NCBI GenBank assembly: GCA_045047115.1
Contig: JASFYR010000029.1
Coordinates: forward strand, 1-42,206
Direction of reading: 5' to 3'
DNA length: 42,206 nt
Source of the DNA: Sulfurospirillum sp.
GTDB lineage: Bacteria > Campylobacterota > Campylobacteria > Campylobacterales > Sulfurospirillaceae
Under the pieces are notes generated by a model. That model saw only the letters and a list, made by a program, of their open reading frames with translations. It was not told where the DNA came from and searched no databases. Positions 382-19,541 of this stretch are shown here, piece after piece. The position numbers were made by a program, and so were the translations under genes. The stretch's first letter is position 1; every line of letters begins with the position of its first letter.

Positions 382-1262
382 TCTTTTAAGCTATCAAATA
401 CTTTAGAGATAACAGATTTACTAATTTCAGGTTTTATGGTAATGTATTTTTGAGTTATCTCTATATTTGTGTGACCTAAAGCATAAGATACGTGCTCTAT
501 GGGCAAAGAGAGAAAATTGATAGCATAAGTACCTAAGAGATGTCTTATGTCGTGTAAGCGAATATAGGGCAAGTTATAGCACTTCAAAAGGCGAAACCAA
601 GCACCCCTTAAATCTTTATATCTCGTTTGAGTGTTTGGATTCGTAAAAACATAACCTTTTGGATATTTTGTGTTTTGGTTGATACACTCTTTTAAGAATA
701 TTTTATATAACCTTGTATAAAGAGGGTCTGTCATCATATATTGCATATTTTTACGCACTTTGTTAATCTTAGCAGGTATATAGTAGAGTTTCTGCTCTAA
801 ATCTACCATATCCCAAGTGAGACAAAGAACTTCACTTCTGCGACGACCGTGGAGAAGAAAAAAGAAAATATCACAATAAACAGGCTCATTATAGTTTATA
901 AGTGCATTTATAAAATCTTTTTGTACTTCCAAAGAGAAATTAAAGTACCTGGTATTATCAAACTTTGGTAACTCTATGTCCAAAGTGGGGTCATAATCAA
1001 TCAATCTTAGTTTTTTAGCAAATCTAAAATGATTTTTTAAAACTGTAAGAATGTTTTTTACTGTTTTGATTTTATACTCTTTGGAAACAAGAGCATTGAC
1101 GAAGAGCTGCACATCAAGATAAGCGATAGTATCAATAGATTTTATACCTAAAGTATCTTTTATGTGTTTATTATAATAACCAAAATTTGTTTTATATGTT
1201 CGCTCACTATGGAGGACTTTTACATGATTAAAATACTGTTTTGAGATGTTATTTAAAATCAT
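366..1262 (-). CDS. Tyrosine recombinase / phage integrase
   Basis: Catalytic motifs GRRRSE, HDIRH, LGH and TQKY. Adjacent to attL, with an AGGA RBS at 1270-1273. Confidence 0.93.
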   Translation of the reverse strand: MILNNISKQYFNHVKVLHSERTYKTNFGYYNKHIKDTLGIKSIDTIAYLDVQLFVNALVSKEYKIKTVKNILTVLKNHFRFAKKLRLIDYDPTLDIELPKFDNTRYFNFSLEVQKDFINALINYNEPVYCDIFFFLLHGRRRSEVLCLTWDMVDLEQKLYYIPAKINKVRKNMQYMMTDPLYTRLYKIFLKECINQNTKYPKGYVFTNPNTQTRYKDLRGAWFRLLKCYNLPYIRLHDIRHLLGTYAINFLSLPIEHVSYALGHTNIEITQKYITIKPEISKSVISKVFDSLKDGEKV

Positions 1263-1271
1263 GTAAATATC

Positions 1272-1466
1272 CTAAATTTTTCTAACAAAACTTAAAAATT
1301 CTAAAAATAATAAAAACTGTTCATTTTTTAAATTATCTATTTTGATATCAAGTGAAAAAGTACTAATATCTTTTAAAATCAATTCATCACGAATATATAA
1401 ATATTTTTCAAGTTGCAAAGTTGACTTAAGTATTTTTTCTTGTAATTTATCTAATTTATCTTTCAT
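1272..1466 (-). CDS. Hypothetical phage protein (64 aa, helical)
   Basis: AAGGAG RBS precedes the ATG at 1466 (MKDKLDK...), which is a better start than 1484. Confidence 0.65.
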   Translation of the reverse strand: MKDKLDKLQEKILKSTLQLEKYLYIRDELILKDISTFSLDIKIDNLKNEQFLLFLEFLSFVRKI

Positions 1467-1481
1467 TTTAAACTCCTTTTG

Positions 1482-1489
1482 CATTTATA
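1482..1489. repeat. 8-bp target-site duplication CATTTATA (left copy)
   Basis: Identical to 3708-3715 and directly flanks the terminal inverted repeat. Confidence 0.92.
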
Positions 1490-3707
1490 GGGTATTCGCA
1501 AAGTAAGTGACTTTTTAACATATTTTGCTATCCCAATTTTTTACCATTCTTGATAATCCCTGAATATCAACACCTACATTTATTTCATTTTTTTTATCAA
1601 ATTTTGGCTTTTTCTTTTTATGTAAATTAGTAGAATAAAGCATCTTTGCTCTAATGCTTTCAAAGCTATAGCTTCTACCCATTCTATCAACATGACGAAT
1701 TACACTATTCATAGCTTCTGTATAAGCATTTGTTACAGGATAATCAAAGTAGGCAAATATTTCTTTGTGCCAATTTCCTAAAGCTCTAACTAAATCAGAG
1801 AAATATGGTTTAACTTCGCTTGTGAGTTCTTGCTCAAATTTCAAATATCTATCATAAGCTTCCTCTTTATTTTCAGCTTCGTATATTTCAAAAAACTGCT
1901 CTTTTAAATAATACATTTTTGCTAATATTGGATAATTATTTTCCCAATATGAGATTAAGAAACTTTCTCTATCGTTAAGATTATTTTTTCTTTTAAGAAG
2001 AAGAAATCTATCATTTTTTAAATCTATTCTTTGCTTAGAAGTAAGAGAACTTTTTAGCTCTTTACGGTATTTTTCTAATGCAGAATTTGCCATTTTTACG
2101 ACATGAAATTTATCTATAACAACTATTGCTTTTGGTAATACTAGATTAACAGAATCTCTATAAGGCTTCCACATATCAATAGTCACAACTTTTATTTTTT
2201 CATTATCTTTTATACCTCTTAAATATTTAACAATAGTAGTTTTATTTCTATCTTTAAACATTTCAATAATAGTTCTATCTTTAATATTAGTTATTACTGC
2301 TCTTGGTTTACCAGATAAATGAATTTCATCTATACCTAAAATTACAGGTGTTCCAAATACATATTTTTTTTCTAAATCTAAAATATTGTTTTTAAATATT
2401 TTTCTAATATTGCCCTCACTAACACCAGTATCATCTGCTATATATGTAAATGGCTTTAGTAAAGATTGTTTTTTTATATATTTTACTAATCTAGTAGTCA
2501 TATTATGGTTACTAGAAATATTTGGTAAAGTATCTTGAAAAAACTTATTGCACTCATGACATTTGTAACCTTGAACTTTAATCATTAATCCAACTCTTTT
2601 ACCCCTTATAGGCAAATCAAAATAAAACTGATTTCTAACACCCTTTTTTCTATAATAACTACTATTACAATGTTTACAACTTGATGGTATTGTTTCACAG
2701 TTCAATTTAATATTAATATCATGCTCTGTTTCTTCTGTATCTATAATCGAATAATCATCTAAATTCAAAATTGGCATATAAGTATCCTTGTTTAACACAA
2801 CATCTATAGCATTTCTAAAAGATATGCCATTATTTTGTAATGACATCATTTTTTCATATCTATTTGGACTTTTTAATTTTTGTTTTTCAAATCTACTTTC
2901 ACTTTCCAAATGAATACCAAAACCACAAAAAACACAACCAGTCCTAGTTTCTGCTTTTAAAAGAACTCCATCAATATATTTATCATAATAACAATCTGCA
3001 AATTTTATATTATTAATTTTTGCATATTCCCATATATCTTCATCATTCCAACCAGTTCTTAAAAATGGATATACTTTTTTACCGTCTTCTTTTCCGTATA
3101 AAGCTAATTGTTTCCTAAGTGCAGACTCTCCACTCATCAAACCTATTAAAGGCTTCATATCATTCTGTTTTTGCCATTTTTCAATAGGATTTTTCTTTAA
3201 AATTGCACAACACTTAGAATTAACATCAAAATCTTGTTTGACTAAATATCTCCATTTAACTGGTAACTTCCCACTACCATTCTCATAACCGTTTAATCTT
3301 ATATCTTCTAATATATGGCTTTTTGTATATTTTAATTCATTAACTTTCTGAGAAACTTCTTTACTAACAAGTGGAAAACCATATTCTTTAACAACTGTAT
3401 TAAAATTCATTTTAGGCTTAACCCAAATAATATTATTATGAGATTTAACATATTTAATAATGTCAATATCTTCATTTGTTGTATTTGAGAAAACTGCTTG
3501 AATATTAGGAAATATACTTCTAGCTAAATGTAATAAAACGGTGCTATCTTTTCCACCAGAAAAACTTACAAATATTTTTCCATTATTTTTTTGATATTCA
3601 TTTTTTATAATATCTTCTGATAATTTTATTTTTTCTAAAATACACATATTTTTCCTTTATTAGATTTATGGTTAAAATTTAAAAAGTCACTCTTTTTACG
3701 AAGACCC
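1490..3707 (-). mobile_element. ISL3-family insertion sequence (2218 bp) with a PAPS-reductase-like/transposase fusion
   Basis: Terminal IRs at 1490-1518 (GGGTATTCGCAAAGTAAGTGACTTTTTAA) and 3679-3707 (reverse complement GGGTCTTCGTAAAAAGAGTGACTTTTTAA) match at 24/29. An 8-bp TSD and GG ends are typical of ISL3. Confidence 0.92.
1515..3647 (-). CDS. Fusion protein: N-terminal PAPS/APS-reductase-family domain (aa 1-290) plus ISL3 transposase (aa 291-710)
   Basis: N-terminal part has the SFSGGKDS PP-loop, KCCAILKKNP and RTGCVFCGFG. C-terminal part has a zinc finger (CKHC...CHEC), an HTH-like segment, GIDE, IDMW, DKFHV and TNAYTEAMN. Confidence 0.9.
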   Translation of the reverse strand: MCILEKIKLSEDIIKNEYQKNNGKIFVSFSGGKDSTVLLHLARSIFPNIQAVFSNTTNEDIDIIKYVKSHNNIIWVKPKMNFNTVVKEYGFPLVSKEVSQKVNELKYTKSHILEDIRLNGYENGSGKLPVKWRYLVKQDFDVNSKCCAILKKNPIEKWQKQNDMKPLIGLMSGESALRKQLALYGKEDGKKVYPFLRTGWNDEDIWEYAKINNIKFADCYYDKYIDGVLLKAETRTGCVFCGFGIHLESESRFEKQKLKSPNRYEKMMSLQNNGISFRNAIDVVLNKDTYMPILNLDDYSIIDTEETEHDINIKLNCETIPSSCKHCNSSYYRKKGVRNQFYFDLPIRGKRVGLMIKVQGYKCHECNKFFQDTLPNISSNHNMTTRLVKYIKKQSLLKPFTYIADDTGVSEGNIRKIFKNNILDLEKKYVFGTPVILGIDEIHLSGKPRAVITNIKDRTIIEMFKDRNKTTIVKYLRGIKDNEKIKVVTIDMWKPYRDSVNLVLPKAIVVIDKFHVVKMANSALEKYRKELKSSLTSKQRIDLKNDRFLLLKRKNNLNDRESFLISYWENNYPILAKMYYLKEQFFEIYEAENKEEAYDRYLKFEQELTSEVKPYFSDLVRALGNWHKEIFAYFDYPVTNAYTEAMNSVIRHVDRMGRSYSFESIRAKMLYSTNLHKKKKPKFDKKNEINVGVDIQGLSRMVKNWDSKIC

Positions 3708-3892
3708 CATTTATATTTTTGTGGAAAACTTACACGAATAAAACGCTTTTTTTTGTTATGTTCTTCTACAATAGAATAAATATCATCAGAGGTGTAACCA
3801 TTCGGAACATAAAAAAAGCTGTAATCATCCAAAATTACTTTAGAAAAGAAAGGATCATAAGGCAAAGTAAATATTATAAGTTTAACTCGCAT
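3635..3892 (-). CDS. Small phage protein whose 3' end was replaced by the IS
   Basis: ATG at 3892 overlaps the end of rep. Removing the IS and one TSD restores ...SFPQKYKCKRSLK*, whose TGA overlaps the ATG at 1466. Confidence 0.65.
   Translation of the reverse strand: MRVKLIIFTLPYDPFFSKVILDDYSFFYVPNGYTSDDIYSIVEEHNKKKRFIRVSFPQKYKWGLRKKSDFLNFNHKSNKGKICVF
3708..3715. repeat. 8-bp target-site duplication CATTTATA (right copy)
   Basis: Identical to 1482-1489. Confidence 0.92.
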
Positions 3893-5102
3893 AGTCAAAA
3901 TCCATATTAAAATAATTTGGAGGGATATAATCCATATCAAGCAAACCTCTTTCGATAAGCTCATTTTGTACGAGTCCATAATGCTGTAAATTACAATACT
4001 CCAAATCTAAATTTTTATAATATTCAAAGAGTTGATAATCTTTGTAAGACAAAACAGGTTTTGAAATATCAAAAGATATACCATTTTTAACAATAAAAAC
4101 AGGGATACGAGATGATTTTTTCTCTTTTAAAACAGGTTTGCGGTTATCGTAATTTATAGAACTTGTTACTTTAAAACTTTTTTTACTCCAAAGAGTGCCA
4201 TATTTATCAACTATCTCTAAAAGTTTATTGGTGTTAGGATCAACAAAAACAGATATTTCTTTATCTCTGTACATCCAAGTAAGCTCATTGAGCGTGTAAC
4301 GACCCTTTAAGGCTCTGTAAACATCTAAAGATACTAAAGTCCTAGAGGTGTATATCCTGCATATTCCGTGCAGTATATACCAAAGAGTTAAATCAGTTAT
4401 TTTGTCATCACCGTATCTTAAATCATCAAGAGTTTTTAAGATGTATTTCATAAGATAAGCGACAGGGTTTTTGATATTTACTTCTAATTTACCAAGAGGG
4501 AAAGGATAAAAACGCTTTATAACTTTGACGATATTATCTACATATTGTTTAGGGATAAAAATACTAATATGAAGATGAGGACAGCCGTCTTTATGTGGCT
4601 CAATAACTCTAAAATAGACTCTATCAGATTTTGGAATCTTACACCAAGAACGATGAGTCAATAATCTTGAAAACATCTTTGAGAGTTGTTTACTGGCTTC
4701 TTTTGGGAAGTACTTTTTTCTGTTTGACATAGGATTGATAAACTTGATTTTTTTCTTTGTTATAGGATGTTTGCAAGTAAAAAGAAACTCTCTTCCATTG
4801 TAGTTTTTATTGTTTATAACTTTACCACTTGAAAGAGTCTTTTTTGGGTGGTAAATGCTAGGCAAAGTAAGAGTCAAAAATATGTTTTGTAAATCTCTTG
4901 ATTTAGCATATGAGTAGAGAGAATTAACCCTATTGTTTATCTCTGCAATGTATCTGTTTGAGTTTATATAACTATTTTTTGTAATATCTGATAAAGGGAT
5001 ATGTTTATCATCAACTACTAAAAAATTATTGTCTAAAAAGAGCTTGTTTTTTTCTATTTTATCTAGTGCTAACTGACGCATATTTTTTGTTAAACCAAAC
5101 AT
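3882..5102 (-). CDS. Rolling-circle replication initiator (HUH endonuclease, gpA-like)
   Basis: FLTLTLPS motif I, EPHKDGCPHLH (HUH) and YLMKY (YxxxY) catalytic motif. Confidence 0.85.
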   Translation of the reverse strand: MFGLTKNMRQLALDKIEKNKLFLDNNFLVVDDKHIPLSDITKNSYINSNRYIAEINNRVNSLYSYAKSRDLQNIFLTLTLPSIYHPKKTLSSGKVINNKNYNGREFLFTCKHPITKKKIKFINPMSNRKKYFPKEASKQLSKMFSRLLTHRSWCKIPKSDRVYFRVIEPHKDGCPHLHISIFIPKQYVDNIVKVIKRFYPFPLGKLEVNIKNPVAYLMKYILKTLDDLRYGDDKITDLTLWYILHGICRIYTSRTLVSLDVYRALKGRYTLNELTWMYRDKEISVFVDPNTNKLLEIVDKYGTLWSKKSFKVTSSINYDNRKPVLKEKKSSRIPVFIVKNGISFDISKPVLSYKDYQLFEYYKNLDLEYCNLQHYGLVQNELIERGLLDMDYIPPNYFNMDFDYAS

Positions 5103-5103
5103 C

Positions 5104-6258
5104 TTAAAAGCTCATTTTAGAAAGAGATTTAATTGACAAAACTATTGAAAAAACCTCTTTTCTATTTGTAACAGTAGTATGTTCAGTAATTTTATTTAGA
5201 ATAGGTACATATTCAATAATAGGAATATTTGCAATAGTGTTTTGAATAGTTGTTTGATTTAAGCCACCAAGCAAAAACAGAGAATTTTTGGAAAGATTGC
5301 AATGAGTTTTTATATGTTTTGATGTAGTTTTTGGAGTGAGAGAAGAATCTAAAATATTTTGCACAAATATCTCCAAATCAAACTGAACAGAATTTTTAGA
5401 AACAGAAACATTTGTAAAATACATCTTTAATCCTACATCTTTATAATTATAAGAATTTTGCGTAGTAGTGGTATTATCTTTTGTGCTAGTTGTAAAGGTT
5501 AGAAAAGGGATGTTTGTCGTGCTCTCTAACAAACTAGGTTTATTATCTAAAAGCGTAATTTGAGGGCTTGTGAGAATTTTAGATATATCTTTAGATTGCA
5601 ATAAATGCAAAAGTGAATAAAATTGAAAACGACTATTTAAAGTAGAAGGTATATTTACTGTACTAGTTAGAATTGATAAATAATAAGAAGGATTAAATTT
5701 CAATATGCTAAAATCCAAACCAGCATTTTTTAATTTATCTTGATTTGTACTAAGTACAACAACATCAATAACAGAAGAGTAAAAGGATTTATCCAAATTA
5801 ATTATTTGATTTTGTATCTTTTTAAATGTTTGAAAATCTGAAATAAGCAAAATACGACCACGAGAAATGAGATATTTTACATCAGGATACAACTTATTAA
5901 AAAAGTCATTTATATCATTTTTTGATAAGTTATTATAACGAATGATAAAATTATCGATAACAACTTTTTTCTTACTAAGTGCAAAAGGATCATAGATATA
6001 TACAGTATTTAGAGAAACACTATATGCAAGATTATTATATTTTAAAATATTTTTGAGCAAATCAAAAGTGATTTTTTTATCTTTGAAATTGAGAACAGGC
6101 AATGACAAAGAAATAGTTTTATCAACATTTGAAGATACAACAATATTAAAACGGCTATTATCAGCAACAATAGAAGCAAAATCAGATAGAGTTATATTTT
6201 TAAAATTATTTGCTATCAGACTTGAAAAAAGCAGAACGAACAGGACGAGAATCTTCAT
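5104..6258 (-). CDS. Phage secretin (pIV-like)
   Basis: Signal peptide and secretin motifs (SPQITLLDNKPS, YKDVGLK, LLGGL, IPIIEYVPIL). Follows the Zot-like gene. Confidence 0.85.
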   Translation of the reverse strand: MKILVLFVLLFSSLIANNFKNITLSDFASIVADNSRFNIVVSSNVDKTISLSLPVLNFKDKKITFDLLKNILKYNNLAYSVSLNTVYIYDPFALSKKKVVIDNFIIRYNNLSKNDINDFFNKLYPDVKYLISRGRILLISDFQTFKKIQNQIINLDKSFYSSVIDVVVLSTNQDKLKNAGLDFSILKFNPSYYLSILTSTVNIPSTLNSRFQFYSLLHLLQSKDISKILTSPQITLLDNKPSLLESTTNIPFLTFTTSTKDNTTTTQNSYNYKDVGLKMYFTNVSVSKNSVQFDLEIFVQNILDSSLTPKTTSKHIKTHCNLSKNSLFLLGGLNQTTIQNTIANIPIIEYVPILNKITEHTTVTNRKEVFSIVLSIKSLSKMSF

Positions 6259-7291
6259 TTTTTTTACCCCCAGAAAGTAAAGTGAATTGATTTAAAAAAC
6301 CCAAATTTTGACACTTCAACAAATAAGAAGTTTTAGAAACAGTAGTTTCTTTAAAAATAGATGAGCAGGTAAACTCTTTTATAACAAAAGCGAGAGAGTT
6401 TGGAGTTAATACAAAATCATAATTTTTAAAAGTACAAGTAAAACCTGAACAAGTTATATAATAATAATTTGTATTATTATTTATTTCTTGAGATAATCTT
6501 GCAGATTTTTGCCGAAGAAAACCACCATTACCGCTTGGAACATATATTTTATCTCTTTTAACAGCCAAATCACGTGACGGACTAGAAACATTTTTTTTAA
6601 CATTTGGATCGCCTTTCATAAAATTTGTAACAAAATGAAACATTATAGAAACAATTATAACACCTATCAAAAAATAAATAAGATATTTTTTAATAACATT
6701 TGGAGATTTAACACTATCTCCTGAATGATACAAATCAAAAATTTCTTTAGATTTTTTAAGTTTTTTAACACTAGCTTGACTTTTAGCACTCATACGACTA
6801 TCTATAAAAATTCTATATTTGAAAGTATTTGAAAAAAGTAAAAGAGTTGTAGGAACAGCACGAATGAAATATTCAGCAAATTTTTTATACTTAGAATCTA
6901 TAAGAGCTAAATTTTGCGTAATAAGAAGAAAATCTATAAAAATATGTCTATGATAAGAAAAGAGCCAAACAAATACAGGATTAAGAGCGTCAAAAAAATT
7001 ATGACTTTCATCAATAACAAAAAGTGTTTTATAATATCCTAATTTTTTAACTAAATCAATCAAATCATCATCAGTTGAGTCTTTGTCTTTATAAAGATTA
7101 TATAAATCTATAATATTTAATTGAAACTCCTCAAAATCAAATTTTTTTATCTTACTAGAAAGTTTAAAATCAAATTGGTCTATATTAGTATATATAAATT
7201 GATGTTTATTTGATTTCACATCCTCAAATATTTCATTTACTGCATAATATGTTTTACCAGCTCCAGGGACACCTACAAGATAGATAATCAT
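6206..7291 (-). CDS. Zot/pI-like morphogenesis ATPase
   Basis: Walker A GVPGAGKT, Walker B FVIDESH, YHRH, LITQN and a central TM helix. Confidence 0.92.
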   Translation of the reverse strand: MIIYLVGVPGAGKTYYAVNEIFEDVKSNKHQFIYTNIDQFDFKLSSKIKKFDFEEFQLNIIDLYNLYKDKDSTDDDLIDLVKKLGYYKTLFVIDESHNFFDALNPVFVWLFSYHRHIFIDFLLITQNLALIDSKYKKFAEYFIRAVPTTLLLFSNTFKYRIFIDSRMSAKSQASVKKLKKSKEIFDLYHSGDSVKSPNVIKKYLIYFLIGVIIVSIMFHFVTNFMKGDPNVKKNVSSPSRDLAVKRDKIYVPSGNGGFLRQKSARLSQEINNNTNYYYITCSGFTCTFKNYDFVLTPNSLAFVIKEFTCSSIFKETTVSKTSYLLKCQNLGFLNQFTLLSGGKKNEDSRPVRSAFFKSDSK

Positions 7292-7653
7292 TATATTAAC
7301 TTTAATGCTTTATCAATTAAATCTTTTTTTACCTGCATAGCATAAACCCATAAAATCTTAGAAAATAAAAATAAAAGAGCAGAAACAATAAAAGGTAAAG
7401 AAGACAAAAAAGCGTCAGTAAAACCCATACAATGTAATAATCCCCAAAACTTAGGCAAAATATTAGAAGGATCAGAAACGGAAATATTATTAACAGAATT
7501 TATCAAAGTATGTACTAAATTATAAAAAGAATATAAAGAAGTCAAAAGAAAACCATAAAAAGAAAGAACTGAAGTATAATAAGCACTAAGAATAAGAATC
7601 TTAAGACCTTTTACACCAATAAAACCAGCTAAAAAAGTTAAAATTTTAGTCAC
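7291..7653 (-). CDS. pVI-like minor coat membrane protein
   Basis: 120-aa hydrophobic protein located between the pIII-like and pI-like genes. Confidence 0.7.
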   Translation of the reverse strand: MTKILTFLAGFIGVKGLKILILSAYYTSVLSFYGFLLTSLYSFYNLVHTLINSVNNISVSDPSNILPKFWGLLHCMGFTDAFLSSLPFIVSALLFLFSKILWVYAMQVKKDLIDKALKLI

Positions 7654-7655
7654 AA

Positions 7656-8921
7656 TTAATTACTCCCCTGATTAAATTTAATTCCAAGCCAAAAAATACG
7701 AACTGATAAAAACAAAAATACAAAACTAAATATTAAATACAAAATAGGCTTAAAAATAGAAAAAGAAGGGCATAAATCAATATTAATAGTTTTGCCAAAA
7801 GCTGTACTAGTAAAAGAAGGATCAACACCAGAAGGTAAAGAAAAATCTGATTCAGAGAAACCATTTTCATATATACTTATATAATTATCAAACTGTTCTG
7901 TAATAGTAGATAAATCAGTTTGCACATTATTATAAAAATCAGTAATAGAACCAAATCCCAAATCACCCATAAAAGAATCACCTGAAATAGTATCTTTTAA
8001 ACCGTCAATTTTATTTCCAAGAGAATCAAAACCATTTTGATTAACAGATTTTAAAGATTGTAAATTACTATTTATCAAATTATTATTATTATTAACAGCT
8101 TTTAAAGAACTATCAATACTAGATAACTTAGAATTCGTTGATGACTGAATTAGTCCCAAATTATCAAGTTTTTGCCCTAAAAAATTTGTATTTTGTGCTA
8201 TCATTTTGTCAGTTTGTTTTATTATAGTTAAAGATACATTATTAATAGCATCTACATTTGTCCTTCCAACAACTCCAACTGATGAATTATCATCTAAATT
8301 ATTCTGAGTAGGAGTAAATGACAAATTATCATCTTGAATATCTCCAGTAAAATTATTATCAGCTAAAACAATATTAGAACGCTCTTGATAAGAAATAAAA
8401 GAAATACCATTAATACAAGTCATTATATTTGAATCATATTCAATATTATCAATTGTAACAATGGTAGAAATATAAGGAGCATATTTCAATGTAGAGCCAA
8501 TAGATTCACAATTTGTTTGAGCATCTTGCATATAATCTCCAGATGTAGCATTTGTACAATTACCATCGGATAAAAGCATATTATTAACTCCAGGACAATC
8601 AGAATTTGAGGGAGGAGGAGCAATAGAAGAAGTTAAGACACAAGTAACATTTCGAACTTTATAAGAACCAGCTTGACAAACTACATATGAAGGATCAGTA
8701 ATTTTAGATTCATCAGGTCCTTTTAGGACAGTTCCCCAATAATTATTTGAAGAATCGTGAACAGAAGAAAAAGAAACCATAGTATAAGAAACAAAATGAT
8801 TACCATCCCACCAATCAAAAGTAGTACCAACAGAAGGACAACCGTCAGGCTTATGAAGAACAGTAGTATCAGCAAAGAGAGAAAAAAATAAAAATGAGAA
8901 AATCAAAAAAAATTTTAACAT
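7656..8921 (-). CDS. pIII-like adsorption protein
   Basis: Signal peptide, Cys-rich N-domains, N/D/S-rich linker and coil, DLCP motif and C-terminal TM. Syntenic position. Confidence 0.8.
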   Translation of the reverse strand: MLKFFLIFSFLFFSLFADTTVLHKPDGCPSVGTTFDWWDGNHFVSYTMVSFSSVHDSSNNYWGTVLKGPDESKITDPSYVVCQAGSYKVRNVTCVLTSSIAPPPSNSDCPGVNNMLLSDGNCTNATSGDYMQDAQTNCESIGSTLKYAPYISTIVTIDNIEYDSNIMTCINGISFISYQERSNIVLADNNFTGDIQDDNLSFTPTQNNLDDNSSVGVVGRTNVDAINNVSLTIIKQTDKMIAQNTNFLGQKLDNLGLIQSSTNSKLSSIDSSLKAVNNNNNLINSNLQSLKSVNQNGFDSLGNKIDGLKDTISGDSFMGDLGFGSITDFYNNVQTDLSTITEQFDNYISIYENGFSESDFSLPSGVDPSFTSTAFGKTINIDLCPSFSIFKPILYLIFSFVFLFLSVRIFWLGIKFNQGSN

Positions 8922-8922
8922 A

Positions 8923-9039
8923 CTAATTTCTCGCTAAACTTATAGCCGCAAAAGCAGGAATAAGAACTAAAGATACATTTACAAAAATTGAAATAAAAAA
9001 ATTAAATGCAGGGTCAGTTGTAAAAATGTAAATATCCAT
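8923..9039 (-). CDS. Small single-TM minor coat candidate (38 aa), not in the ORF track
   Basis: AGGAG RBS at 9046-9050; MDIYIFTTDPAFNFFISIFVNVSLVLIPAFAAISLARN*. Confidence 0.75.
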   Translation of the reverse strand: MDIYIFTTDPAFNFFISIFVNVSLVLIPAFAAISLARN

Positions 9040-9048
9040 AATATACTC

Positions 9049-9423
9049 CTATTTTTTTGATACCAAAATAACTATATAAACCCCAAAAAAGAGGAACAAA
9101 AAACCGATAAGCAAACCTGAAAAAGAGAGTAAATATCTGTAATTTTCAGCACTCAAACCAAGATAGATAGCTTGCTCAGGAATATAACAATTATCTTTAT
9201 CAGAATCATAAATAAAACCGGGATAAAGATATTTATAATAGTTGTTAGTTGTAGTTCGATGCCAAGTGTCATTATCATCTTTGCTGTAATGATAATAAAA
9301 AGTACCGCTTTCAAAATAAAAATCATTTACGCATTTATCATTCTTGCCATAAAGATAATCAGCGTTTAAAGATTGTGTAAATAAAAAAAGAAAACTAAGA
9401 ATTTTTAGATATTTTAAGAGCAT
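9049..9423 (-). CDS. Exported, C-terminally anchored phage protein (about 124 aa)
   Basis: Signal peptide ending SLNA, a two-Cys aromatic-rich domain and a C-terminal TM. ATG 9423 preferred over 9450. Confidence 0.65.
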   Translation of the reverse strand: MLLKYLKILSFLFLFTQSLNADYLYGKNDKCVNDFYFESGTFYYHYSKDDNDTWHRTTTNNYYKYLYPGFIYDSDKDNCYIPEQAIYLGLSAENYRYLLSFSGLLIGFLFLFFGVYIVILVSKK

Positions 9424-9505
9424 AAGCGACACCCCATAAAGTAGAAACAAATACTAAGAAGATAGACATTAATTGCAAAAAAATATCATAATTAATCGAA
9501 AACAT
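9395..9505 (-). CDS. Small single-TM minor coat candidate (36 aa), not in the ORF track
   Basis: AAGGA RBS; MFSINYDIFLQLMSIFLVFVSTLWGVAYALKISKNS*. Confidence 0.7.
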   Translation of the reverse strand: MFSINYDIFLQLMSIFLVFVSTLWGVAYALKISKNS

Positions 9506-9523
9506 CTAAAAATCCTTAAAATT

Positions 9524-9543
9524 AAAAGGGGAGAAACTCCCCT
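9524..9543 (-). terminator. Intrinsic terminator after the major coat gene
   Basis: AGGGGAG-TTT-CTCCCCT followed by a T run on the minus strand. Confidence 0.6.
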
Positions 9544-9576
9544 AAAAGCGAATGGTGAAAAGCACCAAAACTAAAA

Positions 9577-9699
9577 CTAACCTCTATTACCCATAGAGAT
9601 AGCTTTCTTAACACCCCAGATAGTAGCAACAGCGGCAAGCACCAAAGCACCAACGCTAAGCACATCAGCGGTATTAAAAGCAACGCCTGTCAAATCCAT
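9577..9699 (-). CDS. Major coat protein (pVIII-like, 40 aa, no signal peptide), not in the ORF track
   Basis: Strong AAGGAG RBS; MDLTGVAFNTADVLSVGALVLAAVATIWGVKKAISMGNRG* has an acidic N-terminus, Ala/Val TM and basic C-terminus. Confidence 0.88.
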   Translation of the reverse strand: MDLTGVAFNTADVLSVGALVLAAVATIWGVKKAISMGNRG

Positions 9700-9782
9700 T
9701 ATGGACTCCTTTTTTTATGTAGTAGATGAAACTCATCCCTATCAAAGGCACTAATAAAAAGAGTGCCTTTTGTAGGAGGAAT

Positions 9783-10100
9783 TTATTTTTTTATCTGTTC
9801 AAGTGGGTTTTTATCGAAAACTTGAAAAGATAGATTATCGTCGGGGAATGTATATGTTCCGCTCTTTGCTGATATAGTCATATAGGGGACTACTATATAC
9901 TTTCCTTTGGTTTGTTGTAATGCACCTAATAGGTCTATTGGAAAAGATATGTTTTCAGTAGATTTAACGGTGTAGTTGTCATTATCGATTGTCTCAAATG
10001 TAGCAGTTAATTGAGAACTCATATTTACTTGACCAGTTGTTTTGTCTTTGCGAGAGATTGGACGGACTTCGTCAACTTTGCCTATAAAGAATGTTGTCAT
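9783..10100 (-). CDS. ssDNA-binding protein (pV-like), putative
   Basis: 105-aa beta-rich protein immediately upstream of the coat gene, with an AAGGAG RBS at 10109-10114. Confidence 0.65.
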   Translation of the reverse strand: MTTFFIGKVDEVRPISRKDKTTGQVNMSSQLTATFETIDNDNYTVKSTENISFPIDLLGALQQTKGKYIVVPYMTISAKSGTYTFPDDNLSFQVFDKNPLEQIKK

Positions 10101-10114
10101 AATATTGACTCCTT

Positions 10115-10187
10115 CCCTGAAAAAGAATTTCCCTCTTTAAGTTCAGGGCAAAAAGAGGGGAGTAGTTTTAAGACTTGCTCGGGTCTT
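10115..10187 (-). promoter_or_regulatory. Putative tandem H-type pseudoknot leader of the ssb gene
   Basis: Interleaved stems AAGAC/GTCTT with GAGCA/TACTC, then CCCTCTTT/AAAGAGGG with CCCTGAA/TTCAGGG abutting the RBS. Confidence 0.55.
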
Positions 10188-10267
10188 GTTTTTTAGCATT
10201 TTTAGTAAAAACAAAAAAATGTTATAATTAAAGGTTAGTTATGGATTTACACCCATAAAAAATATAA

Positions 10268-10350
10268 ATGCTTAATAATTTAGCATTTATATAAAAGAAT
10301 GATAAAACAATAAAGCTTAAAAAGAAATAAATATGCTTAATAATTTAGCA
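10268..10350. promoter_or_regulatory. Two identical operator-like sites ATGCTTAATAATTTAGCA
   Basis: 18-bp exact copies at 10268-10285 and 10333-10350 (TGCT-N9-AGCA dyad) in the divergent intergenic region. Confidence 0.7.
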
Positions 10351-10372
10351 ATAAAACAAAATAGGCAAAAAA

Positions 10373-10576
10373 ATGAATAGAATAGAATTAGCAGAATTAC
10401 TAAAAGTTAATAGAAATACTCTTACAAACTGGGAAAAAGAAAAACCTGAACTAATAAGGCTAATAAATCAAGGTCTTGCTCTTGATGAACAAATAGAGGA
10501 AGTAGAAAGACATCTTGAAAAACTAAAAGAAATAAAAAACAAAGCAAAATCAAAAAAAATAAGATTAATAAAATAA
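10373..10576 (+). CDS. HTH transcriptional repressor (XRE/Cro-like)
   Basis: ELAELLKVNRNTLTNWEK helix-turn-helix; divergent from the structural operon. Confidence 0.8.
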   Translation: MNRIELAELLKVNRNTLTNWEKEKPELIRLINQGLALDEQIEEVERHLEKLKEIKNKAKSKKIRLIK

Positions 10577-11256
10577 TGAGTAATTTTATAATAATAACAA
10601 TTATAATTTTGATAATTCTATTAGTAAAAGATTTAGAAAAACAAAATAAAAAGAGAAAAAGACCAAAAAAAAGAGAAAAAACAATAGAAGAAATACAAGA
10701 AGAACTATATCAAAAAGAAAAAAAAAGAGAAAAAGCAGACAGAGAAAGAGAGAAAAAGCAAAAAGAGTGCAAAGATAAAAATACAAAAACAAAATATAGT
10801 CCATATAGTATATATAAACAAACAACAAAAGAAGAGAAAAAAAAGATTTTTGAAGAAAATAGAAAAAAAAGATACAGAGAATTTATGAAAAAAAATATAA
10901 AAAAAGGAAAAGAGTACGAATTAAAAATTGGTAAATTTTATGAAGAGGGAAAATACATAGTAAGCTATAACGGAATTGGAAGAAAAAAAGAAGACGGAGG
11001 AATTGACCTTATAGCAAAAAAAAATAATGAAATATTACTAATACAATGTAAAAATTGGAAGGGAAAAAATAAAATAAGTCAAAAAGAATTAAGAATATTT
11101 ATAGGAGATTGCCAAATTTATATAGAAAAAAACAATCTATCAAATAAACAAATAAGAAAAATATTTATAATGTCAAATGAAAATATAGACTATGGAGCAA
11201 AAAAATACCTAAAAGAAAACAAAAAACATATTGAATATAAAATAATACCAGAATAA
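10576..11256 (+). CDS. Membrane-anchored Mrr-like PD-(D/E)xK endonuclease
   Basis: N-terminal TM, charged linker, then GKEYE...DGGIDL...LIQCKNW Mrr catalytic motifs. Confidence 0.8.
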   Translation: MSNFIIITIIILIILLVKDLEKQNKKRKRPKKREKTIEEIQEELYQKEKKREKADREREKKQKECKDKNTKTKYSPYSIYKQTTKEEKKKIFEENRKKRYREFMKKNIKKGKEYELKIGKFYEEGKYIVSYNGIGRKKEDGGIDLIAKKNNEILLIQCKNWKGKNKISQKELRIFIGDCQIYIEKNNLSNKQIRKIFIMSNENIDYGAKKYLKENKKHIEYKIIPE

Positions 11257-11415
11257 TAAGAAAATGATATTTTTAAATGAGAAAGAAAAAAAAGAAATAT
11301 TGAGTTATATAGAAGCTACATATAAAATATAGATATTTGATAGTAAATTGTGAATTAAGAGTGTATTTATTGAGGGAAAATGAAAGTGGCTAATAACTTT
11401 TTATATATAGCCAAG

Positions 11416-11466
11416 AGGAATTTATGATATTTTTGCTCATGCCTCGCAAAAATATCATAAATTCCT
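11416..11466. repeat. Perfect 21-bp inverted repeat (candidate packaging signal or origin hairpin)
   Basis: AGGAATTTATGATATTTTTGC-N9-GCAAAAATATCATAAATTCCT. Confidence 0.8.
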
Positions 11467-12094
11467 TGTGTAGTCGCTCCGCTCCAAAGTAAGAGTAGAA
11501 GTCATCAGGGGAGTGACTAAGTCCCCTAATTTGCTCCTAGTACAATCTAATTACTAAGAATATAGATATAACTAAGAGCACGACTACTACTCTATGATTA
11601 AACAAAGTTTATCTTTTGTTATGACACTCCCACCCACTCCACGCGATTTTTAAAGCAAAAAAAAAGGACTAAGGCAGTCAAACCCTAGTCCTTTGCGTCA
11701 CTAATTGGATAGTCAATCCAATAAAGATAAACAAATCAATTTACTCAATCTGACGCCCTATCGGTTGTCGTTTTAAAAAAGAAGTAGCTAAACAACAAGG
11801 CTCTAAGAACATCAATTCAAGCTTTTTTAAAAGAAAATAATCGGGCAAATGGCTATTAATGTAAGTAAAAGATGAAAAATGCAAAAAAAAAGTAAATAAT
11901 TCAAATACAGAATAAAGACAGCTGTTTAGGTAGGAGTTGAAAGTATGGTTTTTAATCTTTACATGTAAAGGGTGGCAAAGTTCCATTGTAGTTATACCAT
12001 TAACTTTAGGAGGACGCTATAAGTAGCTTATTTACTTCACGAGATACTTAATAACAAAGTTATTATCTCTTATACCTGCGGTGCTAAGAAATTA

Positions 12095-12352
12095 TTAAAA
12101 ACGAGGATATACAGAAAACAAACTAAGAATAGTATAACTACAAACTTTTTTAGTTCGTTTAAATCTGATAGTAGGAATATATGCAGTTCTTGAATTGAAG
12201 TTAAAAAAGAACAGCACAGAGAATAGAAATGAAAGTACTGGAGCAAAGAAAATATCAAGCTTAGTTTTAAGAACAGATACACACTCACTCTTATATGCAG
12301 AGTAAAGATAATCTTTAGAAGTTGCAACAAATAACTTTAATTGAATTTTCAT
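12095..12352 (-). CDS. Hypothetical phage protein (85 aa, one hydrophobic segment)
   Basis: AAGGAG RBS 5 nt before the ATG and a TATAAT at 12381-12386 on the minus strand. Confidence 0.45.
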   Translation of the reverse strand: MKIQLKLFVATSKDYLYSAYKSECVSVLKTKLDIFFAPVLSFLFSVLFFFNFNSRTAYIPTIRFKRTKKVCSYTILSLFSVYPRF

Positions 12353-12591
12353 CTAATCTCCTTTCTTTTTCTCTATATATATTATAACCTTAAAGTACTT
12401 AATACCACCTTAAATAGGTACTTTAAGGCACTTGTTTTGTTAAATAATTGATGTTTTTTAGTAGTTTTCTTAAATTAATTCTATAAATAATTATTTCAAT
12501 CGGGTCAGTTGTTTTTGGTTGTTTTTGATAGTGCATATATGTAAGTACTTTTTGTTTAAGCAAAAATAAAAAGTGGTTTACTACACACATA

Positions 12592-12657
12592 CTTCAAACC
12601 CGATGTCTGGGCGGTTGACCGTCTGGAGGTAGGTTCGATTCCTACACCTTCTCGCCA
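12592..12657 (+). repeat. attR core (duplicated 3' part of selC)
   Basis: 66/66 identical to 316-381; lacks the 5' half of the tRNA. Confidence 0.97.
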
Positions 12658-15451: not shown

Positions 15452-16229
15452 TTCAAAGTTTATCTCTGTTTTGTGGTGGATTTTTATGCCTGTTTTGGTA
15501 GCGCTTTTGTTTAACTCTGTTATTCTGCTTATTTTTATGGATAGAGGCGTAAAAGAGATCAAGTTTGAGCAGCAAAAAACTCAATATATAGAAAATTTTC
15601 CAAAATTTTTAAATTTAAACAGGGTAAGAAGTAAAAGAGTTTCACCAAAAATCAAAAAAGTAGAAAACTTAGGAGCAATGATACTGCAAGCTTGTTATGC
15701 CAGTCAAAACAAAAAGTTTATAATTTTCAAAGAGGGCTCAAAAACTATTTTTTTAGATTTAAACCAAAGCTATAAAGGTGCAAAGCTGCTTGATGTGGGT
15801 TTGGATTATGCTGTTTTTTCTAAAAATGGCAAAAAGATAGAGTTGAAACTAGAAGAGATAAAAACAAAAACTCAAGCCAAAAAAGGTATGCTCCAATCTT
15901 CTGGAAGAGAAAAATACATAGGTGTTAAAAGAGATGATTTTAAAAAATATACGAAAAATATAAGACGAGCTTTAAGAGATGTGAGAATTCAGGAATTAAG
16001 AAAAAAGAGAAAATTTGCCGGCATAAGACTGAGTTTCATAAGAAGAGGCTCGCTTTTTGATAAAATGAGGCTCAAAGTTGGCGATGTCATAAAAAGCATA
16101 GACGGAAATGAGCTTGGAAGTATGATGGATTTGTTGCCATACTATAACAGGATCAACGATACTGCAACGATACAGGTTGGTTTTGAGAGAAACAATGAGA
16201 TGAAGGAGATTATATATGAAATTAATTAG
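15435..16229 (+). CDS. T2SS GspC-like protein with PDZ domain
   Basis: TM, HR-like domain and PDZ motif LKVGDVIKSIDG; precedes gspD. Confidence 0.75.
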   Translation: MSLLTNSKFISVLWWIFMPVLVALLFNSVILLIFMDRGVKEIKFEQQKTQYIENFPKFLNLNRVRSKRVSPKIKKVENLGAMILQACYASQNKKFIIFKEGSKTIFLDLNQSYKGAKLLDVGLDYAVFSKNGKKIELKLEEIKTKTQAKKGMLQSSGREKYIGVKRDDFKKYTKNIRRALRDVRIQELRKKRKFAGIRLSFIRRGSLFDKMRLKVGDVIKSIDGNELGSMMDLLPYYNRINDTATIQVGFERNNEMKEIIYEIN

Positions 16230-18015
16230 TATTTTGGTTCTATTTGCAACTTTGATGTTTGGTGGTGTCAAAACCGACAATAAATCAAATGTGGAGATAA
16301 ATTTTAAAAACTTGCAAATAAATGCCTTTGTGAAGATGGTGTCCAAGATAAGTGATAAAAATATACTATTAAACTACAATATCCCCGGCAAAGTAAACTT
16401 TATCTCTGTAAAGCCTGTAAAAAAAAGTCAAGTTTATGATCTGCTTATCAGCGTACTTAAAAACAAAGGATATACCCTCATAGATAGTCATAGTGGTTAT
16501 TTTCAAGTGGTAAGAAGCAGTGATGCAGCCAGAGAGTCTCCGCCTTTGAGTACAAAAAATATACTAAATCAAATCCAAACAGATATCATAGGCATACGTA
16601 ACCTTTCGGCTGATCAGATGTTGGCACAGATAAGATTTTTATTGAGCAAATATGGCAAGATAGCTGTCTCTAAAGAGGCAAACAGTTTGATTATCACGGA
16701 TTATCCTCAAAATCTAAAGAGCATCAGAGGATTGGTGCGCAAACTTGACTCTCAAAAAAAGAAAGAGATAAAATTTTACACACTAAAAAATTCAAAAGTG
16801 ACTACTGTTCTGCCAAAGATAAAAAGTATAGCAAACAGCATCTACAACCAGAAAATGCCTAGCCAAAAAGTCGATCTGTTTTCAGATGAAGGCACAAATA
16901 CCCTCATAATAGTCTCAAGCAAAAAGATTATAGATGCTCTTCTTTCGCATGTGAAGAAGTTGGACCAAAAAGATGAGATTTCGCAAAGATCCTTGCATAT
17001 AGTCAGTCTTAAAAATTCTGATGCAAAGCTTGTTGCCAAAACTTTGGAGACTATCATCTCAAACAAACCCAAAAATAAAAATAAAAAGGTAAAAATCGAT
17101 ACGACCAAGCCAACATTTACTGCTGATGAAGAGACAAATACACTTATCATCTATGCCTCAAATGAAGAATTTAAAGAGATAAAGATACTCATAAATGCTC
17201 TAGACATTCCAAGACAGCAAGTTTATGTAAGTGCCAAGATAGTAGAGATAAGTGATACAAAATCAAGTAAAATAGGTGCAAAATATGGTGTTTTGGGAGG
17301 TGTCGCCAACTCATCAGGACTCTACTCTTTTAGTGCAGCTCTAGGTGCTCCTGCCATACCGTTTAATTTGAGCAGTTTGGGAATCGATACACCCTCTATC
17401 ACAAGAGGATTGGCTCTTGGGGCGACAATCTCTTTGTTGAGCTCAAAAGGCGCTGCAAATGTTCTCTCACAGCCATCTTTGCTTTGTGTTAACAACCTCG
17501 AATCTTCCATATATGTCGGAAAAACCGAATCCATAATAACACAAGGAAGCGTAGGTTCAACTACAACCGATGTTACGAAAAACACCTATACCAGACAAGA
17601 CATAGGATTGACACTCACAGTAAAACCAAGAATATCAAGTGACAATAAAGTCCTTCTACATGTAAAGGTTATCATGGAAGATGTGCTTCCCGGAAGCGAA
17701 CAGGGCCTGCCCACTACAACCAAAAGAGATGTAGAGACTACAGCTATAGTGAAAAACGGTGAGAGCATCATCATAGGCGGACTCGTAAAGGACAACATGG
17801 GAGATACAACCACCAAAGTACCGCTTTTGGGAGATATTCCTATTTTGGGTCAGGTATTTAGATATAAAGAAAAAAGCAATGATAAGATAAATTTACTGGT
17901 TATTTTAACCCCGTATATAGTAGATAAAAGCGCTGAACTTTCATCTCTAAAAGAGATGCTCTCAAAGCTAAACAATATAGAACAACAATTTGTGAAAAAT
18001 ATAACAAAAAAATGA
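16216..18015 (+). CDS. gspD: T2SS secretin GspD
   Basis: N0-N3 domains, DIPRQQVYV and KVPLLGDIPILG secretin motif. Confidence 0.92.
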   Translation: MKLISILVLFATLMFGGVKTDNKSNVEINFKNLQINAFVKMVSKISDKNILLNYNIPGKVNFISVKPVKKSQVYDLLISVLKNKGYTLIDSHSGYFQVVRSSDAARESPPLSTKNILNQIQTDIIGIRNLSADQMLAQIRFLLSKYGKIAVSKEANSLIITDYPQNLKSIRGLVRKLDSQKKKEIKFYTLKNSKVTTVLPKIKSIANSIYNQKMPSQKVDLFSDEGTNTLIIVSSKKIIDALLSHVKKLDQKDEISQRSLHIVSLKNSDAKLVAKTLETIISNKPKNKNKKVKIDTTKPTFTADEETNTLIIYASNEEFKEIKILINALDIPRQQVYVSAKIVEISDTKSSKIGAKYGVLGGVANSSGLYSFSAALGAPAIPFNLSSLGIDTPSITRGLALGATISLLSSKGAANVLSQPSLLCVNNLESSIYVGKTESIITQGSVGSTTTDVTKNTYTRQDIGLTLTVKPRISSDNKVLLHVKVIMEDVLPGSEQGLPTTTKRDVETTAIVKNGESIIIGGLVKDNMGDTTTKVPLLGDIPILGQVFRYKEKSNDKINLLVILTPYIVDKSAELSSLKEMLSKLNNIEQQFVKNITKK

Positions 18016-19535: not shown

Positions 19536-19541
19536 GCGTAG

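Follow-up and report, generated by a model that had tools for sequence, protein, structure and literature searches.

An ISL3-family insertion sequence in a Sulfurospirillum prophage encodes a PAPS reductase-like domain fused to its transposase and is a probable ancestral form of a clade of phage proteins

Results and Discussion

An enzyme domain joined to an ISL3 transposase

A 42,206-nucleotide stretch of DNA from Sulfurospirillum sp. (contig JASFYR010000029.1), referred to here as the window, carries an insertion sequence (IS) that a first-pass annotation had described as bearing a cargo domain. The IS spans positions 1490-3707 (2218 bp), contains a single open reading frame (ORF), and occurs in 1 copy in the 2.14-Mb genome. 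It ends in inverted repeats and is flanked by a target-site duplication of 8 bp (Table 1), a length typical of the ISL3 family. Searches of the encoded protein against Pfam identified PAPS_reduct (PF01507) at residues 25-224 (E = 5.4e-15; 56.3 bits against a cut-off of 22.5) and Zn_ribbon_ISL3 (PF14690) at residues 321-366, and the NCBIfam model for ISL3 transposases (NF033550) scored 253 bits against a cut-off of 180, aligning over profile positions 8-369 of 370. Since the Pfam and NF033550 matches lie within one ORF, the cargo domain makes up the first third of the transposase polypeptide and is not a separate gene. The annotation was right to place the domain inside the IS, as the repeats and the duplication indicate, but it missed that the domain is in frame with the transposase and that phage proteins probably descend from such a fusion.

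Ordinary ISL3 transposases are 440-450 aa long, and their start Met aligns with Met291 of the fusion protein. The enzyme domain is joined in frame, exactly at this normal start, to a complete ISL3 transposase made up of a Zn-ribbon, a helix-turn-helix (HTH) and a DDE domain. Residues D440, D491, and E644, which we take to be the DDE catalytic triad of the fusion transposase, are invariant in alignment A3. In alignment A1, which combines transposases, fusions and stand-alone proteins, C327, D344, P346, C363, C366, T384, and R386 never vary and C324 hardly does. We regard both this architecture and the status of the element as an IS as practically certain. In its transposase (above the NF033550 cut-off), its GGCTCTTCG-type repeats and its 8-bp duplication the element resembles other members of the ISL3 family; it differs from ISL3 elements with passenger genes in that passenger and transposase are translated as one polypeptide. 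The sequence AAGGA lies 7 nt upstream of Met291 (2775-2795, minus strand). Since it precedes the canonical start, a transposase-only product may also arise, i.e., the IS may make the plain transposase beside the fusion protein.

Table 1. Coordinates of the fusion element, its parts and its prophage host, given as positions within the window.
Feature	Position	Strand	Basis
Whole fusion ORF, 710 aa	1515..3647	-	ORF call; 1 copy in the genome
PAPS-reductase-like PP-loop/Fe-S (iron-sulfur) domain, fusion residues 1-290	2778..3647	-	PF01507, phrog_424, AlphaFold2, Foldseek
PP-loop SGGKDS, residues 30-35	3543..3560	-	S30, G32, K33, D34, S35 identical in 78/78
CC pair C146, C147 (KCCAILKK), presumed Fe-S ligands	3207..3212	-	78/78; weak alignment to 2goy
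C219 (AxCYY), kept only in the Zn-ribbon/HTH-bearing clade	2991..2993	-	54/54 vs 1/24
CxxC C238, C241 (GCVFCG), presumed Fe-S ligands	2925..2936	-	78/78
Met291, aligned to start Met of canonical ISL3 transposases	2775..2777	-	Alignment A1; BLASTP vs P0016; sequence
ISL3-type Zn-ribbon (C324, C327, C363, C366) and HTH, residues 296-425	2373..2762	-	PF14690 (E = 5.3e-6); invariant columns of A1
DDE_Tnp_ISL3 catalytic domain, residues 437-667; D440, D491, E644 conserved	1647..2339	-	PF01610 (E = 2.4e-56); NF033550; A3
IS inverted repeat, transposase-distal end (GGGTATTCGCAAAG...)	1490..1518		Inverted-repeat pair I1
IS inverted repeat immediately 5' of the fusion ORF	3679..3707		24/29 positions match the other arm
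Target-site duplication CATTTATA, 8 bp, copy 1; holds start codon of 70-aa ORF 1272-1484	1482..1489		
Target-site duplication CATTTATA, 8 bp, copy 2	3708..3715		
Filamentous (inovirus-like) prophage carrying the IS	382..12657		Pfam, composition, 66-bp direct repeat

The host of the IS is a filamentous prophage of ~12.3 kb integrated at the selenocysteine tRNA gene (tRNA-SeC, 284-377). A perfect 66-bp direct repeat, the att duplication, is located at 316-381 and 12592-12657 and overlaps this tRNA gene, and the G+C content is ~25% in the prophage stretch versus ~35-40% in the rest of the window. Pfam identified genes for an integrase of the tyrosine type (366-1262), a Rep/GPA-type initiator (Rep, 3882-5102), a secretin (5104-6258), and a Zot-type ATPase (6206-7291). 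Insertion of the IS into this prophage is recent.

The enzyme domain

The SGGKDS, CC and CxxC (GCVFC) motifs previously noted at 2778..3647 were all located, at residues 30-35, 146-147, and 238-241, respectively, and that interval corresponds exactly to residues 1-290. The best family match of the domain was phrog_424, "phosphoadenosine phosphosulfate reductase" (E = 4.1e-41; 142.4 bits; residues 6-272). This match and the one to PF01507 both lie well outside what chance would produce. We aligned it with related proteins to give a set of 78 (3 fusions, 51 stand-alone proteins, i.e., enzyme plus Zn-ribbon/HTH with no DDE domain, and 24 proteins without a Zn-ribbon/HTH), in which S30, G32, K33, D34, S35, C146, C147, C238, and C241 are identical throughout. 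CC...CxxC is the Fe-S ligand pattern of APS reductase, and the CC pair falls opposite that of Pseudomonas aeruginosa APS reductase (2goy) in a phmmer alignment, albeit a weak one. Within residues 1-295, Cys occurs only at positions 2, 146, 147, 219, 238, and 241, the next being C324 of the Zn-ribbon. By sequence, then, the domain is a phage-type PP-loop enzyme with a canonical ATP-binding PP-loop and CC...CxxC cysteines like those of APS reductase and DndC, as first proposed.

The earlier annotation had also suggested that structure prediction be compared with CysH. An AlphaFold2 model of residues 1-425, built from a 20-sequence alignment, had a mean predicted local distance difference test score (pLDDT) of 87.6. 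When this model was searched against the PDB with Foldseek, the top matches were CysH (6vpu, 2o8v, 1sur) and APS reductase (2goy, 7lhr), all with a probability of 1.00 (6vpu_H, E = 5.1e-7; 2goy_A, E = 3.6e-6; template modeling score on target, 0.56-0.63), followed by LarE. The domain is thus predicted to have the alpha/beta fold of PAPS/APS reductases. Sequence searches of the PDB gave marginal matches only, to CysD (1zun; E = 0.005 with a profile, 0.024 with a single sequence), and weak NCBIfam matches included LarE, TilS, and TtuA.

A straightforward reading of these matches would be that the domain is an auxiliary metabolic gene product for assimilatory sulfate reduction, i.e., a CysH or APS reductase. 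Its fold and CC...CxxC pattern agree with APS reductase, database names label it a PAPS reductase, and a preprint on Bifidobacterium prophages argues that phage PAPS reductases have a metabolic role. However, scores against the models of the assimilatory enzymes were far below the cut-offs (cysH, TIGR00434, 34.2 bits vs. 165.1; PRK02090, NF002537, 33.6 vs. 154; APS_reductase, TIGR02055, 22.2 vs. 235.3; PAPS_reductase, TIGR02057, 18.3 vs. 254.2), and the PP-loop is the ATP-type SGGKDS as opposed to SFSGAED in 2goy. CysH and APS reductases have a C-terminal catalytic Cys in an ECGLH motif. Since the PAPS domain has no Cys beyond C241, this catalytic residue is missing. A whole-genome search with PF01507 returned only the window gene, TilS, and MnmA, with no CysH and no CysD in a genome scored 100% complete. 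Likewise, no cys genes occur among the prophage ORFs or the ORFs at 12.6-42.2 kb; the genome-wide family searches did not take in CysN or CysI. While assimilatory APS/PAPS reductases (2goy, 1sur, 6vpu) are the best structural matches and have a like CC...CxxC pattern, the window domain differs from them in having neither the C-terminal catalytic Cys nor pathway partners and in sitting within a mobile element. In agreement with the first-pass annotation, we consider a role in sulfate assimilation extremely unlikely.

Distribution of relatives

A search of 5.8 billion clusters gave 335 matches among 8000 scored candidates, of which the best 120 were examined. These comprised 43 plain ISL3 transposases, 51 proteins of 420-634 aa in which the enzyme domain is followed by a Zn-ribbon/HTH with no DDE domain, 24 enzyme-only proteins, and just 2 full-length fusions (P0001, 708 aa, 65% identity; P0002, 735 aa, 61%). 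To characterize the C-termini of the stand-alone proteins, we built a hidden Markov model from the N-termini of the 43 transposases alone; it matched 51/51 stand-alone C-termini (E <=3e-8) and 0/24 enzyme-only proteins. No fusion was found in 61 genomes of the family or in 401 genomes of the order, where a close transposase was present only in genome G141. The 150 highest-scoring of 1.84 billion representatives at 50% identity included none either, their first entry being a 443-aa transposase (459 bits). Using the three-fusion alignment as the query, no locus with both the enzyme and the DDE domain occurred among the 80 metagenome loci listed, and a scan of viral contigs with the consensus of the two IS inverted repeats returned nothing. 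Deposited phages gave 68 records that match the catalytic domain only (27-36% identity), with 0/68 covering 80% of the 425-aa query. Full-length enzyme-transposase fusions are very rare.

The composition of this set bears on a proposal in the first-pass annotation that the domain gates transposition as a redox or sulfur sensor. In such a scheme the enzyme domain would regulate the transposase, either by using its Fe-S cluster to sense redox state, oxygen, or sulfur or by acting as a switch that depends on ATP. Fe-S clusters are common as sensors, the two parts are physically joined in three lineages at 61-66% identity, and C219 is specific to the clade tied to the transposase-type domain. However, the domain is conserved with all of its motifs in 51 proteins that have no DDE domain and in 24 that have no transposase part at all. 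Since it persists intact in these proteins, its role appears to be independent of transposition. The invariant PP-loop points to catalysis, moreover, and Met291 with its upstream AAGGA suggests that the transposase can also be made alone. Regulation of transposition is therefore disfavored, and we consider it unlikely.

Among known phage proteins, the window domain can be compared with lambda NinC, which also belongs to phrog_424 (E = 1.2e-89, vs. 4.1e-41 for the window domain) and whose PP-loop was aligned to the family profile by hhalign, weakly (probability 74%, E = 2.8e-5). A relative on a tailed-phage contig (L083, described below) lies between homologues of NinB and NinG, as ninC does in lambda. 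NinC differs from the window family in being 290 aa long, in having no Zn-ribbon/HTH or transposase, and in having FC in place of CC. One paper (PMC10853773) contained nothing relevant on transposase fusions or NinC, and another (PMC13230959) made no mention of PAPS or Dnd.

More distant stand-alone genes, at loci L003 and L004, have no ISL3-type repeats around them and sit beside genes for DNA methyltransferases, a helicase, and an HNH nuclease. L003, from a Sulfurovum metagenome-assembled genome, also carries a 1358-bp element (6060-7417) with near-identical ISL3-type inverted repeats, no transposase, and no clean 8-bp duplication. It contains two ORFs (147 and 175 aa) without a family match and lies ~550 bp upstream of the stand-alone enzyme-Zn-ribbon/HTH gene. 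Two further proteins depart from the common layout: P0095 (516 aa) combines the same enzyme domain with an N-terminal N6/N4 DNA methyltransferase, and P0083 (634 aa) has an extra C-terminal region of ~170 aa beyond the Zn-ribbon/HTH.

Passengers, fusion, and loss of the DDE domain

L083 is a 9.6-kb IMG/VR contig of a tailed phage with the gene order Sak, YqaJ, NinB, SSB, Dam, enzyme plus Zn-ribbon/HTH gene, DUF6378, ThyX, NinG, and a tail-protein gene. Its enzyme gene is identical to P0025 (100% identity) and lies in an element (4921-6445) with matching ISL3-type inverted repeats and an 8-bp duplication of its own, AATTTTAT. When the fusion P0002 was mapped to this contig, residues 1-429 corresponded to positions 4994-6295 and residues 696-735 to positions 6292-6411 in another frame. 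This split mapping, together with the repeats, indicates that L083 holds a copy of a P0002-like fusion IS that has lost its DDE domain (~266 codons) by deletion. It records another, independent insertion event of the IS lineage, again into phage DNA. We read the L083 element as an INTERMEDIATE caught in the act.

For the origin of the fusion, the closest ordinary relative with DNA at hand is that of G141, whose transposase is 63% identical. The G141 IS (L174, 430-2872) has GGCTCTTCG-type ends, as in the window IS, and no clean 8-bp duplication. Between its left end and the transposase lies a passenger, a 239-aa Fic/DOC ORF (546-1265; PF02661, 32.8 bits), showing that the IS lineage carries passengers in the slot upstream of the transposase. 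The same IS has a 79-aa ORF whose stop codon immediately precedes the ATG of the transposase. Since a passenger ORF ends at this point, loss of one stop codon could yield a fusion like that of the window.

Such a simple path raises the question of whether the fusion arose by accident, through read-through from a passenger gene, and is itself functionless. The junction, exactly at the transposase start Met, is where such an accident would place it, and in the G141 arrangement only one stop codon would have to be lost. On the other hand, the three fusions are only 61-66% identical and yet retain the frame and every motif, and the derived stand-alone clade retains the enzyme joined to the Zn-ribbon/HTH. 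An accident of this kind is thus highly improbable.

To examine the direction of evolution, trees were inferred with quick IQ-TREE runs, with support from the SH-like approximate likelihood ratio test (SH-aLRT) only. In the Zn-ribbon/HTH tree (97 rows, 135 columns, rooted on distant transposases), 48 stand-alone rows formed one clade (SH-aLRT 100; branch length 1.98) nested in a transposase subclade. Moving outward from these 48 were P0024, P0025, P0002, and P0033, then the transposases P0004 and P0005, and then the window protein with P0001. The enzyme-domain tree (78 rows, 305 columns, rooted on the 24 enzyme-only proteins) gave the same order, i.e., the window protein with P0001, then P0002, P0024, P0025, and P0033, then the 48, with supports of 80-96. 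Forcing the 54 enzyme-linked rows together cost 0.75 log-likelihood units, and the p-value of the approximately unbiased test (p-AU) was 0.477. Therefore, a single origin of the linkage between enzyme and Zn-ribbon/HTH is not rejected. The long branch of the Zn-ribbon/HTH has no counterpart in the enzyme domain, a contrast that fits a change of DNA specificity after loss of the DDE domain.

Taken together, the trees and L083 suggest that the stand-alone clade originated from a fusion: a passenger joined the transposase, the resulting fusion shed its DDE domain, and the product became a phage gene. We consider this order of events likely. It would place the available loci in a natural series, from an IS with a separate passenger (G141), through the in-frame fusion (window) and a DDE-deleted IS copy in a phage (L083), to 48 clusters of domesticated phage genes. 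This series offers a clear candidate for the recruitment by phages of a DNA-binding domain from a transposase.

Possible function

Phage "PAPS reductases" are very common and are often annotated as metabolic genes, without an established function. In the locus described here one branch of this family is physically coupled to the DNA-binding module of a transposase, an arrangement that speaks for a role directed at nucleic acid. We propose that fusion to the transposase involved a passenger gene of the NinC/phrog_424 type found in phages, as the trees and the one intermediate suggest, and that DDE-less copies were kept by phages, giving rise to a clade of at least 48 stand-alone enzyme-Zn-ribbon/HTH proteins. 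The domain would act as an ATP pyrophosphatase that adenylates an oxygen of nucleic acid, with sulfur transferred via the Fe-S cluster, as proposed for DndC, SspD, and BrxP. The Zn-ribbon/HTH would position the enzyme on DNA, in the IS form presumably at the inverted repeats, and the benefit would be that the carrier DNA, whether IS or phage, is shielded from host restriction of the Dnd/Ssp type.

Relatives of the domain are repeatedly linked to DNA modification, either adjoining DNA methyltransferases (Dam in L083; L003 and L004) or fused to one (P0095). The sole relative with a phenotype is also of this kind. According to a study of Vibrio phages, protein p0018 of phage P5a_red is a fusion of a PAPS domain with Dam, and moving its two-gene region into a sensitive phage led to infection of a Dnd-carrying host (bioRxiv 10.1101/2021.05.05.442762). 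This anti-Dnd case is cited in PMC13551039, which lists PAPS reductases as candidate anti-defence genes in Aca-regulated operons. Like the window fusion, p0018 is described as combining a phage PAPS-like domain with a DNA-targeting module; its partner, however, is a methyltransferase and not a transposase. A relative in Vibrio phage 511E55-1 was considered as the published anti-Dnd fusion and rejected, being 386 aa long with no Dam domain.

These links also bear on whether the substrate is DNA at all. The domain might instead thiolate or otherwise modify tRNA or other RNA, or make a small molecule, as do TtcA, TtuA, LarE, and QueC, with the Zn-ribbon/HTH serving only for expression or location. 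The LarE sulfur transferases returned by Foldseek and the weak LarE, TilS, and TtuA matches are in keeping with such a substrate, and homologues may act beyond sulfur metabolism (PMC11437467). The domain's repeated fusion with, or position next to, DNA methyltransferases and a DNA-binding module of transposase origin, together with the anti-Dnd precedent from the Vibrio phage, makes a substrate other than DNA improbable.

By analogy with these relatives, a DNA-modifying or DNA-protecting role for the domain is plausible. The enzymes to be compared with it are DndC, SspD, and BrxP of DNA phosphorothioation (PT), which have a PAPS-reductase fold, an ATP-type PP-loop, and Fe-S cysteines and act on DNA (PMC8569181; PMC12914056; PMC12707154). 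DndC in particular is an Fe-S protein with ATP pyrophosphatase activity (PMC8569181). The window domain has the fold, the PP-loop type, and the Fe-S-type cysteines in common with these enzymes, but it scores far under their cut-offs, has no partner ATPase or nickase, and is joined to a transposase. The NCBIfam DndC model (TIGR03183) gave 15.6 bits against a cut-off of 290.4, and the PADLOC matches were BrxP (39.7 bits; E = 4.4e-11; residues 16-84), SspD (32.4 bits; E = 1.8e-8), and DndC (15.3 bits). As the first-pass annotation had stated, no dnd or ssp partners lie nearby: there are none among the prophage ORFs or the 26 ORFs of >=130 aa at 12.6-42.2 kb, which are also free of cys genes.

Several points weigh against a protective role and the path that we propose to it. 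The matches to BrxP, SspD, and DndC span ~70 residues, little beyond the PP-loop region. DndD (TIGR03185) had no match in the genome, scored 100% complete. There is no sign in the host of a Dnd system for the element to escape. No DndD, SspC, or BrxC-like ATPase is encoded in the IS or the prophage, where the only ATPase is the Zot-type one (Pfam); the genome was not searched for SspC and BrxC by family. All four known PT systems need a partner ATPase, i.e., DndD, SspC, or BrxC (PMC12914056; PMC12707154), and isolates with a PAPS reductase and without such an ATPase had no PT (PMC12914056). The Fe-S cluster is presumed from conserved cysteines, and the function is assigned by analogy. In the Vibrio case two genes were moved together, and the authors tie the effect "at least in part" to the PAPS domain (bioRxiv 10.1101/2021.05.05.442762). 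With regard to descent, the trees are quick ones from short alignments, with a long branch and basal supports of 80-96, and the proteins examined, the best 120 of 335, are metagenomic cluster representatives.

Some of these points bear even more directly on a stronger version of the idea, namely that the domain is a bona fide PT writer of the DndC/SspD/BrxP type that works with the host IscS, its Zn-ribbon/HTH replacing DndE or SspB. The common PP-loop and Fe-S cysteines and the weak PADLOC matches to BrxP and SspD are in line with such a writer, as is the finding that BrxP and BrxC suffice for PT in Bacteroides (PMC12914056). Against it stand the DndC score, the want of a partner ATPase in the IS or prophage and of DndD genome-wide, and the need for such an ATPase in all four known PT systems. 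Membership of DndC/SspD is not upheld, and there is little likelihood that the domain is a writer of this type.

On balance, the combination of a fusion IS, descent of phage proteins from it, and a DNA-directed protective enzyme is the explanation that we favor as a whole, with moderate confidence. The DNA-directed protective function, taken by itself and drawn from analogy, is tentative, its chances being slightly short of even. A fuller picture, in which the element is a mobile DNA-protection module whose repeat-binding Zn-ribbon/HTH delivers an Fe-S PP-loop enzyme that marks or shields IS and phage DNA, and which phages tamed by deleting the DDE domain, is possible and rather doubtful.

If the proposed history is true, the DNA-targeting domain of an entire clade of NinC-like phage proteins derives from an IS, and the window holds a rare surviving form of the full-length ancestor. 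The inverted repeats of the IS, moreover, offer a defined DNA target for assaying the enzyme. Each part of the fusion comes from a known family; the enzyme-transposase fusion itself and its link to the phage clade were not found in the literature searched (subscription journals and supplements being outside its scope), nor was any paper that joins "ISL3" and "PAPS reductase".

Other features of the window

The target duplication holds the start codon of the 70-aa ORF at 1272-1484 (minus strand), which is located upstream of the integrase gene; the IS therefore parts this ORF from its former upstream sequence. At the opposite side, a 114-aa ORF (3635-3979, minus strand) extends over the IS boundary and is unlikely to be a real gene. 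Elsewhere in the prophage, a 226-aa ORF (10576-11256, plus strand) is hydrophobic near its N-terminus and carries a restriction-endonuclease domain (Mrr_cat, E = 3.3e-9) at its C-terminus, suggesting that it may be a defence or exclusion gene.

Beyond the prophage, the 26 ORFs at 12.6-42.2 kb comprise secretion, adhesin, primase, RNase, and ribosomal genes, i.e., type II secretion genes, a gene for a 1581-aa cadherin-like protein, DnaG, RNases, and a ribosomal operon. The host type II secretion cluster (16216-20762) adjoins the prophage, which has a secretin gene of its own. A host protein of 331 aa (25723-26718, minus strand) combines a PP-loop N-terminus resembling ThiI and argininosuccinate synthase with an NFACT-R_2 RNA-binding domain; this protein, which has no relation to the IS, brings the PP-loop proteins of the window to two.

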